64,000 nt of DNA from a virus. Location: IMG/VR virus record IMGVR_UViG_3300003322_000423, positions 34,590 through 98,589 of that record. One strand, written 5' to 3'. The notes beneath the pieces were generated by a model. It was not told where the DNA came from. It worked only from the letters and a program-made list of their open reading frames with translations, and did not search any database. Numbering within the stretch: position 1 is the first letter of the stretch; each line of letters begins with the position of its first letter. The translations under genes were made by a program, and so were the position numbers. Positions 34,132 to 57,730 of this stretch are shown one piece after another.

Positions 34132-34961
34132 TCAGTGGCTACCCCGAAGCTTGCGAAGCCATGTAGAGATACGTTCGCGAAGTCTCTGACGCTTGGGTGT
34201 CAGATTCTTCAGCATTTCGTGCATGTCTTCATCGGTGTAGCCGGTTTTGGTCCGGACACTTTCATTCACGAAACCGACCGTGTAAACCTCATGATCCGGA
34301 TTAGGTGGCGCAATGTTGACTATCGTACCACCGTTAACGTCAAGAAATGCAGGTGGCTTACGTGAGCCCTCACACTCTCCGAAAAGAGTGTGGGTGTATA
34401 TAAGACCCTTAGGGGTCAGACGGCGTCTCTGACCACATACAGAGCATTTGCCCATAGGTGCACTCAACGTACCCTCCGAATTGAATCAGGATGCTCTACC
34501 GCATCCATATAGAACTTTTCTAGAAGCGCCTGGAACTTGTCAAACTTGGCTTCTGCTGCACGTATCTGCCTGTACAGTGACCCATTCATCTCAACAGCCA
34601 TGCCGTCAGACCGGGGTGTTGTGTACATCTCCATGCCGTACTCTTCAACGGTGAGCCAGACTCGCGGCACAAGTTACTCCCAATCTAAGGGGTTTCTAAG
34701 ATGTGCGAGAATAAAAGTAGCACCAGTCTTCAAGTCCTGGTCTCGCTGCCACATAGCCGAAGTTTCCGGATAATCACCCTGTTCGGCACCCCACGTAGAC
34801 ACATACCTCGAACCCAGATTCGCAAGAATCTGTGTATGCAAATCGAGCATATCAGGGAAAGACATACCGTTAGCATGCTTGAGGGCTAGATACCCCGCGA
34901 TTGCCTCGGGCGTTGTGAATTCGGGGATTTTGTCCACTCCGGATTCATCATCTTGCACCAC
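34132..34961 (-). other. three small hypothetical ORFs (34132-34467, 34464-34670, 34674-34961)
   Basis: Tightly packed, co-oriented ORFs. Confidence 0.55.
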
Positions 34962-42300: not shown

Positions 42301-42504
42301 CTATTTCTTGGATTCTTCTGTGTGCCAAAAAGAGTGTGACCAGTAGTCAGCTACATCACTGTCTGTCCGTATATAAAGCTTACCTGGTTCGTCGGCTTTT
42401 GACACCACTCCAGCAGAGATAGGTATTGTGATATCCGTCCCACAGCGGGGGCACGCGATGATAAGTGCCCCCACAGTGTGCATCTCACCGTCTACGTCTG
42501 ACAC
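42301..42504 (-). CDS. small Zn-ribbon protein
   Basis: CPRC; coupled ORF. Confidence 0.5.
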   Translation of the reverse strand: MSDVDGEMHTVGALIIACPRCGTDITIPISAGVVSKADEPGKLYIRTDSDVADYWSHSFWHTEESKK

Positions 42505-43919
42505 TAGTCCTCCCGGAGCCAGGATATAAGCGCTCTCTTCAACCCGTCAGTTCTCTGGTTGAGATGTTTTTGAATCGCCATGTCTGGTGTCCCCTTCGCA
42601 AAAACATTGTGGACATTTACCAGTCGTGTTTGCCCGCGCCTCTTCAGGCGCGCTATGCACTGTTCCTGATCTGCCGGTAGTGGACTGTGCTCTAAGAAGA
42701 CAACATCCGAGGCATGAATAAGTGAAATCCCTTCCTTCAATGAGGATATGGTGGCCACTAAGACGCCGTTCGCAGTGCTCTTCCATTGGTCCACTAACTC
42801 TGATCTTTTGTGGGTCGGGACGTCCCCCGTGACGAGCGTGACCGGACGGTCATTTCTAGAAAGGGCCTCTGCCACCGCTCTGGCAGAGTCTTTGTACCAG
42901 ACATACACCACGATCGGCCCGAACCGATCGTCAAGGAAATCACGGACAAAATCAATTTTCGGTTTTTCCTTAGTGGGAGGGTTAGTCGCCAACTGCCGTA
43001 ACCGCGAGTAGAGCGCCCCACCTCCATTGACAAACTCCGAATGCTCAAGATCCGGGTGCTCGATGATGTATTCTTTACGCGCTTGTACAAAGGTTTTCCT
43101 CACAGAAGCTGGTAGGTCGACAAAATAATCACGGTCGCGTTGGTCAAGAGTAGCAAGACTAGGGACATCTTGAAGGGTCCGGCGTAACGAGAATTGACCC
43201 AATATTTGTTGAAAATCGTCTTCAAGTCCACGTCGTAACTGCCCTACTTCCGTACTCCAAGGGGTCTTGACGACGTAGCAGTATTCCTCTACAAATCGCC
43301 AATAGCTCTTGTATGCTTTTTTGTCCCACAATTGCAGCATAGGGAAAAGATCACCCGGCGTATTAACAATAGGTGTACCCGTGAGATACCAAATAGGTGT
43401 CTGAAGGTTAGTCGCCCGTGCTTTCCGCAGTTCCATTACATGCTTAGTGCTCTGACTGCTACGTCCGCGTAAACGATGTGCCTCGTCGAATATGCAGACG
43501 GCCCAGGGTCGCTCCGAGAGTATCCCGTATTGACGCTGACCCGCTAACGGGTGGGGTTGTCCTTTGAGCGTTTTCGGCCACGTCGCTGACCAGTTGTTGT
43601 AACTAGTGATGACAAAGTCTGTCCACGGATTATCAAGGGCTTCGAACCGGGCTTCGAAGCCTTGTCCGTCGGCTGTGACAACCCTAGCGCTTGGCGCAAA
43701 TCGAGAAATCTCATAACACCAGTTCTTCACAAGATACGCAGGGCATGTTACCAGTGCAGGTCTTTTCGTCTCCTGAACTTTCTGATACGCCGCCACAATA
43801 GTAGGAGGAGTTTTACCAACCTAAACGCCGGGCACATCAAAGAGCCCGGCAACCCCCTTAGAGTTCAATAAAAAGTCCTTGGAAGTTTCTTGATAGTCAG
43901 ACAAGGTGTATTGAGTCAC
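42504..43919 (-). CDS. SNF2-like SF2 helicase with an in-frame TAG inside Walker A
   Basis: GTG 43919 gives TLSDYQ...LFDVPGV*VGKT; then DEAH, LTGTP, EGISL, Q...R..R.GQ. Confidence 0.88.
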
Positions 43920-44346
43920 CGATATCCCATTCTGATCTCGATCTAGGCTTACGTCTACTACATTTACAACATGAACGGCCCCATCCTGTACGGGTAGGAA
44001 ATTCGTACGTGTTGTCAGAAGTGTATTCGTGATTAGCCGGACAATGCGTTTTTATTGCATTTAAAGCCGCTGGCCCGGAACTTCTCATTACATTTTCACG
44101 TTGAGTTTTGGGCCTCAAATGATCTGGATTTACACATGAGGGGTTGTTACACTTGTGTTCTACTATGTAACCCTCAGGTACGGGACCTTTGTGGAGAATA
44201 TATGAGTAAATATGTGCCCGCCAGTAACCTTCACGTTTGGCACCTTTACTTAAACCTCCGTACCCGTTTTTATCCTTCCATGCTGTCCATAACCAACATG
44301 TCTCAGTCTTTTCAACTTTGGCCCAGAATCTGTCTTCCAGGGTCAT
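43897..44346 (-). CDS. HNH homing endonuclease
   Basis: RFWAKV..CWLW..AH..H.CNN..CVNPDHL...EN. Confidence 0.9.
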   Translation of the reverse strand: MTLEDRFWAKVEKTETCWLWTAWKDKNGYGGLSKGAKREGYWRAHIYSYILHKGPVPEGYIVEHKCNNPSCVNPDHLRPKTQRENVMRSSGPAALNAIKTHCPANHEYTSDNTYEFPTRTGWGRSCCKCSRRKPRSRSEWDIGDSIHLV

Positions 44347-50318: not shown

Positions 50319-50690
50319 CTAGCACTTGCAGGTTTTAGATTGTTTGTAACAGTTTTTGCACCTAGATCTATTTCTGTTGTGTCTACATGTAAGACATTCT
50401 CGCCATCCTCTAGTGGGGTGTATATACAAATTTTCATCAGTGAAAGGATGACCCTTTTTGCAGGAATCCCTGCGCTCTTCTCTATTATTCTGTAGAGACG
50501 TTACGGGTGTGAGATGGTGTGGGTTTACACACCCTGCGTTATGACAAACGTGGTGAATTACTAAGTTTTTTGGAATTGGTCCCACAAAAATCTCATAAGA
50601 CACTCTGTGAGCTTGTTTCCCTCTAAACTTGCCATATTTGGATGTGCCCGCCGTGGCACCCATCCATTCCCAGCATTCGTGGAAGGGCAC
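50319..50690 (-). CDS. HNH homing endonuclease
   Basis: CWEW..YG..AHR.SY..HH.C.N..CVNP.HL. Confidence 0.85.
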   Translation of the reverse strand: MPFHECWEWMGATAGTSKYGKFRGKQAHRVSYEIFVGPIPKNLVIHHVCHNAGCVNPHHLTPVTSLQNNREERRDSCKKGHPFTDENLYIHPTRGWRECLTCRHNRNRSRCKNCYKQSKTCKC

Positions 50691-53758: not shown

Positions 53759-54347
53759 TTGTCCGTCGTTGATTGCGTACTATTCTCAATATAGTACTTG
53801 GGTTAACGTCAAATTCTTTAGCTAGAGTTCGATACCCCACAACACCCTTGAGGTATCTGTCTCGTATCTCTTTTACTTGATCTTCAGACAGTTTACGTAT
53901 TTTTACATTGGTTGTGGGGCGTCGATTCTTCCGTGTCTTATCTTGTTCATTAAGCAGGCTATTTCCTGCAAATAGATGCAACACAGACACACATGAGGGG
54001 TTATCACACGTATGGCACACCATTTCTGGAGTGTATCCGTACACCCATTTAAATATCCATACATGCGCCCTGTGTTGCTGACCCTCCGCCCAAAACCACC
54101 CGTACCCGTCTTTGTCCTTACCTCGTTGCCACACCCGACAATTGGTTATAGGGTCCCTCACCCATTTTGTGTTAAATCTTTCAATAGGTGAGGGACGTGC
54201 CCGTTTAGGTCTATTTGCGTACTCACATTTGTAACAAACCCCTCTTCTATCTTTTGGATCTAAAGATCCAGTTCCCGACTTACTGTGTTTTAGCGGAAAT
54301 TCAACAACCCCTCTATCTAAACCGCATTTAGTACAAATCATTTTCAC
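53748..54347 (-). CDS. HNH homing endonuclease with a C-terminal HTH
   Basis: RAH..VCHTCDNPSCV...HL..N..D. Confidence 0.85.
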   Translation of the reverse strand: MKMICTKCGLDRGVVEFPLKHSKSGTGSLDPKDRRGVCYKCEYANRPKRARPSPIERFNTKWVRDPITNCRVWQRGKDKDGYGWFWAEGQQHRAHVWIFKWVYGYTPEMVCHTCDNPSCVSVLHLFAGNSLLNEQDKTRKNRRPTTNVKIRKLSEDQVKEIRDRYLKGVVGYRTLAKEFDVNPSTILRIVRNQRRTNDE

Positions 54348-57545: not shown

Positions 57546-57644
57546 GACTGCAACCTTTCGGGAGTCGTTTTCGGGATCACCACCCGGGCCTCTTGTTTAC
57601 TCCCGGCAGGCTTACCGGCATCGCGTATCACGAGTGGTGATCAG

Positions 57645-57730
57645 TGCCCCCGTCCGGACTTGCACCGGATGACCGTCTGACGTGCCTCATGGAAGTGAGG
57701 ACCACGTAACCGTAAGGTTTCGTCGGGGGC
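57645..57730 (-). ncRNA. solitary tRNA-like RNA
   Basis: Acceptor GCCCCCG/CGGGGGC-A, T-arm TCCGG-TGCAAGT-CCGGA, non-standard D and anticodon arms. Confidence 0.6.

Follow-up and report, generated by a model that had tools for sequence, protein, structure and literature searches.

To our knowledge, very few natural systems have been described in which translational bypassing takes place, namely gene 60 of phage T4 and its relatives, the byps of yeast mitochondria and, as a candidate, the terminase gene of phage Hau3. Here we describe the gene of an SNF2-type helicase which is interrupted by an in-frame TAG between two identical valine (Val) codons inside motif I, the P-loop of the enzyme. The gene lies in a stretch of 64,000 nucleotides (nt), called the window in the following, which covers positions 34,590 to 98,589 of the IMG/VR record IMGVR_UViG_3300003322_000423, a viral contig of 98.6 kilobases (kb). 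Comparison with related genes suggests that one full-length helicase is probably made by short-range bypassing (a stop-hop), either programmed or tolerated.

Hops between Val codons (GUG UAA GUU) are reportedly enhanced by a mutant tRNA-Val, a result attributed to O'Connor and colleagues in 1989. The byps of Magnusiomyces capitatus mitochondria, said to have been described by Lang and colleagues in 2014, are many short inserts in conserved coding sequence which are skipped by the ribosomes. In E. coli, engineered stop-hops between matched codons are functional (Weiss, Dunn, Atkins and Gesteland, 1987; see the review by Atkins et al., 2016, PMC5009743). According to the review of 2016, no natural in-frame stop-hop was known (PMC5009743). 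In the gene for the terminase of the Streptomyces phage Hau3, gaps of 7-10 nt follow a UUA codon, and the junction peptide was detected by mass spectrometry (PMC5009743, PMC10732093).

A stop codon between matched valine codons in motif I

The helicase is encoded on the minus strand. The frame opened by GTG 43919-43917 reads VTQYTLSDYQETSKDFLLNSKGVAGLFDVPGV and goes on with the take-off codon; around the interruption it has GAT GTG CCC GGC GTT TAG GTT GGT AAA ACT. The 5' coding segment (43824 to 43919) comprises 32 codons, from GTG 43919 through the take-off GTT at 43826-43824. Its product contains the Q-motif region together with the leading half of motif I (…SDYQ…FLL…AGLFDVPGV), which are N-terminal features of SNF2-type proteins, and matches the N-terminal ends of 135 uninterrupted relatives in a colinear way. 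The in-frame TAG (43821 to 43823, minus strand) forms the gap between the matched codons and would stand in the aminoacyl (A) site of the ribosome when GUU is in the peptidyl (P) site. It is followed by the landing codon GTT (43818 to 43820, minus strand), the same as the take-off codon. The 3' coding segment (42504 to 43817, minus strand) runs from GGT AAA ACT (GKT) onward over 437 codons to the stop codon at 42506-42504 and holds the SNF2-related and Helicase_C domains (PF00176, E = 7.8e-23, and PF00271, E = 1.2e-8, both in Pfam).

Motif I, D-x-x-G-x-G-K-T, is whole only once a hop is applied. Skipping 6 nt leads to a product of 469 amino acids (aa) which contains DVPGVGKT. The predicted full-length helicase has a mass of about 52 kilodaltons, and the predicted peptide across the hop junction is GVAGLFDVPGVGK. 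In a mechanical list of open reading frames (ORFs), the start of the helicase is placed at GTG 43796, past the interruption. An earlier reading of the window from its letters only, the original prediction, had described the extended helicase frame with its GTG start, the GTT-TAG-GTT arrangement, a hairpin of 7 base pairs (bp) in front of it and the 469-aa protein which a 6-nt skip would give; all of these were confirmed in the sequence by our analysis. There is one helicase of the SNF2-type family in the genome, and a second, intact copy as an explanation for the interruption was not found there. A loose scan of the genome for a codon, a stop and the same codon again gave 34 sites. The bare pattern is not above chance, and the matches were rejected as further hop sites. 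The helicase site is significant because of its place inside motif I and its recurrence in relatives, not because of the pattern as such.

Interruption of related helicase genes in other frames

Two further interrupted genes could be read in DNA. Among 12 relatives in IMG/VR, only L002 is interrupted. Pattern scans of IMG/VR, the JGI metagenomes and the GTDB genomes revealed one new true case, L018, located on a soil-type metagenome contig; the remaining hits were chance matches. A profile scan of the GTDB genomes found no relative. In phage records, megablast gave no match and tblastn only relatives of less than 60% identity.

The helicase of L002, on another IMG/VR contig, is 51% identical to that of the window and reads GAT GAG CCC GGA GTT TA GTT GGG AAA ACT. 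Its upstream frame ends with GTT TAG, and the helicase resumes in the +2 frame from GTT GGG AAA ACT, which is a +5 shift. L018 reads CCC GGC GTT TTAG GTG GGT AAA ACT. Here the upstream frame runs into TTA and the helicase is in the +1 frame, with TAG directly before GTG, which is a +7 shift. The number of nucleotides between the two Val codons is 3 in the window, 2 in L002 and 4 in L018. Joining Val to Val yields PGVGKT (D-x-P-G-V-G-K-T) in all three loci, colinear with the uninterrupted homologues. As judged from these alignments, a canonical P-loop would be reached in every one of them only through Val-to-Val re-pairing. Read-through, recoding of TAG and a lone +1 or -1 slip each fail in at least one locus, and read-through or recoding is excluded here because L002 and L018 would have to be shifted by +5 and +7. 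One and the same peptidyl-tRNA can pair with both the take-off and the landing codon, which are GTT/GTT in the window and L002 and GTT/GTG in L018. The codon that would stand in the A site at take-off is UAG in the window and L002 and UUA in L018. The original prediction had suggested a search for matched codons in relatives, and this search found them with a stronger outcome than anticipated, in the +5 and +7 versions which exclude read-through. Its view of the 6-nt insertion as more than an isolated error was borne out as well, with relatives interrupted at the same spot in independent assemblies.

On the protein level, 153 relatives could be scored. 18 of them (12%) lack the N-terminus and are cut off at or near the P-loop. 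The 135 uninterrupted relatives all show [PAMC]-G-x-G-K-[TS], with one residue between G and GK[TS] and no longer spacer. Eleven of the 18 interrupted proteins begin at the first Met or Val past the P-loop, like the ORF call in the window, and seven show GKT after a few residues from another frame. Six of these N-termini (…PAFNVGKT, …PGFNVGKT, …PAFSVGKT, …PAFYVGKT, …PAFHVGKT and …EFYAGKT) were back-translated, with D-x-P-G-V being required as the product of the upstream frame. This results in GAT NNN CCC GGN GTT, a 4-nt gap and then GTN GGN AAR, with GTT being forced before the gap. The inferred gaps are YAAY (twice), YAGY or YTCN, YTAY (twice) and YCAY, corresponding to YAA, YAG/YTC, YTA or YCA in the A site. 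In P0160 the inferred codon after the gap is GCN; the resulting pair GTT/GCN contains the only unmatched landing codon, as read back from the protein.

The take-off codon is GTT in all three loci known from DNA and in all six inferred cases; four intact relatives with available DNA have GTC, GTG, GTC and GTA. GUU is a Val codon which is always read through wobble, and GTT as universal take-off codon fits because of this. The putatively untranslated gap drifts in length and sequence, and the flanking Val codons are kept. One interrupted allele is present in two separate assemblies (P0070 and P0283), and identical interrupted proteins were obtained across sources for P0122 (JGI and ENA) and P0160 (three sources). 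P0286, which is the same allele as P0124, has the N-terminus MNGVGKT, and its frame is open a few codons farther upstream than in the other interrupted alleles. This suggests that its gap may be longer or differently placed. A mid-gene break in L007, assumed from the 312-aa protein P0109, turned out to be a gene-calling artefact in an intact gene.

Distribution and state of the interrupted genes

A phylogenetic tree was built on the helicase body, with the region of the trait itself excluded. For every one of the 18 interrupted tips the nearest neighbour is intact, which amounts to 18 changes for 18 tips. A scattered, recent-looking pattern was also described for the MobA/gene 60 cassette (Manning and Atkins, bioRxiv 10.1101/2022.08.31.505936). 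The pattern found here fits a spread of the gene 60/MobA kind and recurrent deleterious mutation equally.

The window helicase shows 0 deviations at the 111 columns which are at least 95% conserved among the intact relatives. In general, the interrupted alleles deviate about as much as their nearest intact relatives, and three of the four deviations of L002 are common to the intact P0284. P0160, the allele with the unmatched landing codon, is the exception with 16 deviations. Because the deviations match those of the nearest intact relatives, save for P0160, this argues that the matched-codon alleles are probably under purifying selection or very young.

The helicase of L002 is 97% identical to P0284 over the last 380 residues and 98-100% identical past about residue 100, compared with only about 60% over the first 60 or so residues (L002:2879-3200). 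From this profile, the 5' end of L002 clearly appears to be a recombination mosaic spanning the gap, which presumably covers the upstream HNH region too. A general transfer of 5' segments among interrupted alleles was considered and rejected; L002 and L018 show no discordance. The N-terminal segment of the window helicase resembles that of another clade (22/26 residues versus about 17/27). A census of frame breaks in three related genomes showed only the helicase and one deaminase to be broken, and therefore the assembly is not generally error-ridden. An in-frame stop in the nuclease gene of a relative turned out to be the normal gene end.

Candidate signals and tRNAs

The hairpin GCCGGGC-N10-GCCCGGC is located at 43827 to 43850 on the minus strand, with its arms at 43850-43844 and 43833-43827. 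It consists of 7 bp, its 3' arm abuts the first GTT, and the fold has -21.3 kcal/mol with z = -2.6. A GC stem of 6-7 bp at the take-off codon occurs in all interrupted alleles, whether read directly or inferred (z = -2.0 to -3.05). These alleles have the synonymous choices GAT, CCC, GGC/GGN and GTT in common, and a 6-7-bp GC stem therefore ends at the take-off codon. The stem is weaker in three of the four intact relatives and strong in the intact L003. Hairpins upstream of a shift site and abutting it promote forward shifts, also on 70S ribosomes (PMC3639245, PMC6321510). By analogy, a hop-stimulating role of the 5' hairpin seems plausible. The Lys codon after the gap is AAA in all three interrupted loci versus AAG in all four intact loci, and AAA would permit GUUU(U)A and UAAAAC to pair as a small stem over the gap; for both features the sequences are too few to judge. 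Among the interrupted loci there is no conserved Shine-Dalgarno sequence.

A phage tRNA-Val(UAC), proposed earlier as a possible participant, exists at 23482 to 23554 on the minus strand. ARAGORN calls it Cys(ACA), but Infernal aligns the loop as UUUACAC with the anticodon UAC. A U27·C43 mismatch in the anticodon stem allows two stem registers. The gene lies between tRNA-Thr and tRNA-Gly, syntenic with a normal tRNA-Val(UAC) in the relative G002 (L024:1353-1426), and this synteny together with the Infernal loop identifies it despite the ARAGORN call. The tRNA could decode or hold the GUU take-off codon. A tRNA-Val with expanded anticodon was rejected, the anticodon loop having the normal 7 nt in the Infernal alignment. 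In the genome of L002 (85% complete) no tRNA-Val was found. TAG is an ordinary stop in the window phage and ends 8 of 35 long ORFs, and no suppressor tRNA or tRNA with CUA anticodon was found in this phage.

Neighbouring genes and other frame changes

The helicase sits in a replication and recombination module which consists of a sigma-like gene, HNH_3, the helicase, a second HNH gene, a dCMP deaminase, a PD-(D/E)XK nuclease and an AAA_24 ATPase. The HNH_3 homing-type endonuclease gene (43897 to 44346, minus strand; PF13392, E = 2.9e-13) overlaps the helicase start with its end by 23 nt. L002 carries an HNH_3 gene in the same position, 38% identical and likewise ending 23 nt inside the helicase start. 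This overlap, the scatter of the interruption over single tips and the mosaic 5' end in the L002 lineage were not part of the original prediction. HNH_3 is absent within 2.4 kb upstream of the interrupted L018, and it is absent upstream of the intact L004, L005 and L007. The nearest traceable HNH_3 homologues, P0163 (70%) and P0164 (63%), putatively share contigs of 7822 and 18481 nt with the intact helicases P0090 and P0077. The motif of these two helicases is GLWDLPGVGKT, compared with GLFDxPGVGKT, which might be an alternative escape from the endonuclease or unrelated to it. Across the relatives compared, the presence of the endonuclease does not track the presence of the gap (L018, and P0090 and P0077 with their inferred co-residence). 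A self-immunity like that of gene 60 is an attractive hypothesis by analogy and is unsupported statistically, because HNH_3 is absent in the interrupted L018 and its nearest traceable homologues putatively reside together with intact helicases.

Many homing-type endonuclease genes are present in the genome. Two more HNH_3 paralogues are located at 50319-50690 and at about 53973-54140, both on the minus strand, and are 36% and 39% identical to the copy next to the helicase. The second HNH gene of the module (PF01844; 41947-42288, minus strand) lies just 3' of the helicase. It is a resident gene and not a recent invader, because it occupies the same position in interrupted and intact relatives alike (L002-L005 and L007).

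A zinc deaminase gene (26842-27211, minus strand) is split between frames. The break, at CTT TTA T, is near 27008-27026; HAE is encoded in one frame and PCxxC in the +1 frame. Slipping by +1 at CTT-T would restore the spacing from HAE to IYVARV which is found in the intact homologue of G002. The deaminase loci in the related genomes are L054 (G001) at about 1490-1900 and L053 (G002) at 1171-1689. Both genomes with a broken helicase, those of the window and of L002, carry a broken deaminase, and the gene is intact in the relative with an intact helicase. The paired breaks may point to a lineage tolerant of recoding, or simply to gene decay. A 162-aa ORF of G001 aligns near its C-terminal end in two frames at about 57574-57706 of the window (92163-92295 of the genome). 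This could be another frame change or a programmed frameshift of the tail-chaperone type.

Proposed mechanism and alternative explanations

The arrangement itself, its recurrence in different frames, the strict spacing of one residue and the undecayed rest of the gene were all observed directly. For the window helicase, a ribosome would start at GTG 43919 and read 32 codons. It would then pause when peptidyl-tRNA-Val sits on GUU in the P site, with UAG occupying the A site. Being weak and paired through wobble, the Val anticodon might come off, the mRNA might slip by 6 nt and the same tRNA might re-pair with the next GUU. Decoding would restart at GGU AAA ACU and give the canonical motif I, DVPGVGKT, in a protein of 469 residues. 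The 5' GC hairpin may assist by folding again behind the ribosome, and so may the nascent AGLFDxPGV peptide or the phage tRNA-Val(UAC). The original prediction further conjectured that the hop sets the helicase dose. That the hop occurs, and with what efficiency, is what we infer here. The gap may have arisen or persisted by breaking the target site of the HNH_3 endonuclease encoded upstream, as is the case for the T4 gene 60 gap and MobA.

Several points weigh against the production of a full-length helicase by hopping. Stop-hops without dedicated signals are reportedly inefficient, with around 1% in the experiments of Weiss and colleagues from 1987. The stop, part of the pattern in the original prediction, is not conserved: UUA follows the take-off codon in L018, and some of the alleles inferred from proteins have sense codons there (YTA or YCA after GTT). 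TTA is also not rare in the window phage, where it makes up 10% of the Leu codons. The hairpin, taken earlier as a signal for the hop, is partly forced by the Ala-Gly…Pro-Gly codons and is also present in the uninterrupted L003. The matched codons could be a by-product of the origin of the insertion, a 3-nt duplication, instead of selection. The scatter over single tips also fits short-lived deleterious alleles, and near-identical intact alleles exist (P0064 versus the intact P0281, 99%; P0070 versus the intact P0282, 94%). The interrupted group is slightly more deviant at conserved columns (Mann-Whitney p = 0.03), with the deviations being mostly lineage-shared. The deaminase break in the genome of L002 has a different offset and no obvious recoding or slippery site.

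Most of these points come together in the main rival explanation, which sees the interrupted genes as null or near-null alleles. The P-loop codons beside the GC palindrome would be a hot spot for insertions, by hairpin slippage or by error-prone repair after a homing cut, and the alleles would be recent, brief or hitch-hiking with a selfish HNH gene. It would account for the 18 changes at 18 tips, the intact near-twins P0281 and P0282, the gaps without a stop (L018, and others inferred), the slight excess of deviations, the deaminase broken in the same two genomes and the decayed appearance of P0160. Nevertheless, we regard it as rather unlikely. The interruption is found in about 12% of the assembled relatives and always at one codon boundary, and over the rest of the 1.4-kb gene no comparable break could be confirmed: the single far-truncated protein that was checked proved to be a gene-calling artefact. 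The gap varies, but the Val codons on either side of it are retained; the 32 codons upstream and the 437 downstream are intact with the conserved residues untouched, and the genome has no other helicase of the family. Even for such alleles some matched-codon hopping would be expected. In contrast, it is very unlikely that an N-terminally truncated protein from the internal start GTG 43796 works without Walker A, or that two pieces act separately. Gene callers do annotate the helicase in this way, and the landing codon itself is a possible GTG start in L018 and probably in P0058. However, SF2 ATPases require the Q motif and the GKT loop, and the product would lose the former and the whole of the latter. 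There is no Shine-Dalgarno sequence before 43796, where the sequence is CTCCTCC, the landing GTT is not a start codon in the window and L002, and the 32 upstream codons are conserved in the other frame.

Read-through or recoding of TAG by a suppressor tRNA or an alternative code would result in PGV-X-VGKT and suits the window, where the stop is in frame. It seems highly improbable in view of the +5 and +7 shifts needed in L002 and L018, the absence of a tRNA with CUA anticodon, the use of TAG as the end of 8 of 35 long ORFs and the motif I spacer, which has three residues in 0 of 135 relatives. A sequencing or assembly artefact beside the GC-rich inverted repeat is hardly credible: a single base in a short homopolymer stretch is what separates L002 and L018 each from GTT TAG GTK in frame, yet the same site is interrupted in JGI, ENA, NCBI and Logan assemblies, and the interrupted proteins P0070/P0283, P0122 and P0160 were each obtained in identical form from independent assemblies. 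A clean 6-nt insertion is also untypical of errors, and the census shows few frame breaks in the genome. Nearly negligible as well is the removal of 5-7 nt at the RNA level before translation, by polymerase realignment or editing. Nothing speaks for it directly, although in principle a realignment could be templated by the GTT…GTT repeat; a homopolymer run for transcriptional slippage is lacking, and we know of no mechanism which removes 5-7 nt between 3-nt repeats.

Short-range bypassing to a full-length helicase is thus the reading that we favour. A wider picture is doubtful, if less so than the null alleles. In it, an uncultured, probably actinobacterial phage group would keep micro-gaps of 5-7 nt in the P-loop, which are crossed by Val-to-Val hops and were created and spread as the self-immunity of an HNH_3 cassette aimed at this highly conserved DNA. 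This would be a miniature counterpart of gene 60/MobA, evolved independently, and the first natural in-frame stop-hop.

Comparison with known systems

If the proposed hop is true, the helicase is a rare natural case of short translational bypassing. It would be a compact and testable one, with about 60 nt that fit into a reporter, and the natural +5, +6 and +7 variants with stop or sense codons in the A site form a ready-made mutational series. For annotation, it matters that gene callers give truncated or wrong-frame helicases for about 12% of the family. If the link to the endonuclease is true, hopping would offer selfish elements a general means of changing the conserved DNA that they target while the protein stays the same.

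T4 gene 60 and MobA (Huang, 1988; Bonocora, 2011; Manning and Atkins, bioRxiv 10.1101/2022.08.31.505936) resemble the helicase locus in that an HNH ORF overlaps the start of the interrupted gene out of frame. In both, near-identical genomes occur with and without the gap, and some keep the gap without the endonuclease; the L002 lineage has a mosaic 5' segment. In contrast, the helicase gap is 2-4 nt versus 50 nt, and no split of the gene, conserved nascent-peptide signal or take-off stem-loop is established for the helicase. Its endonuclease belongs to the HNH_3 type and, as far as was tested, has no relation to MobA, and the link between HNH and gap is unsupported across the relatives. The mitochondrial byps are similar in their take-off and landing codons, which are sometimes imperfectly matched, and in an A site occupied by a codon that is unused or slow. 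They are different in their length of 27-55 nt and in the relaxed decoding of mitochondria, whereas the helicase depends on the system of a bacterial host and has one site per genome.

The terminase of Hau3 and StrepC.1 (Smith et al., 2013; Antonov et al., 2023, PMC10732093) is also an actinophage-type gene in which a block of 7-10 nt breaks the frame in a conserved junction. There, a slow UUA follows the take-off codon and a 5' stem-loop was proposed as stimulator; L018 and probably P0006 share the UUA. The gene, the position and the gap length are different (here 2-4 nt between matched codons), most helicase cases have a stop instead of UUA, and UUA is not rare in the window phage. The Hau3 hop has support from mass spectrometry in E. 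coli, while that of the helicase is a prediction from sequence. In the synthetic stop-hops of E. coli, matched codons flank a stop as well, and re-pairing takes place 5 or 6 nt downstream, so that nine nt are read as one amino acid. Those are engineered reporters of low efficiency, whereas the helicase site lies in a natural gene, within an essential motif, and is seen again in many relatives. The closest known systems are the synthetic stop-hops of Weiss et al. and the terminase candidates of Hau3, and the helicase gap is far shorter than that of gene 60. As far as the alignments of the three loci show, what appears to set the helicase site apart from all of these is the occurrence of three frame offsets inside an invariant catalytic motif.

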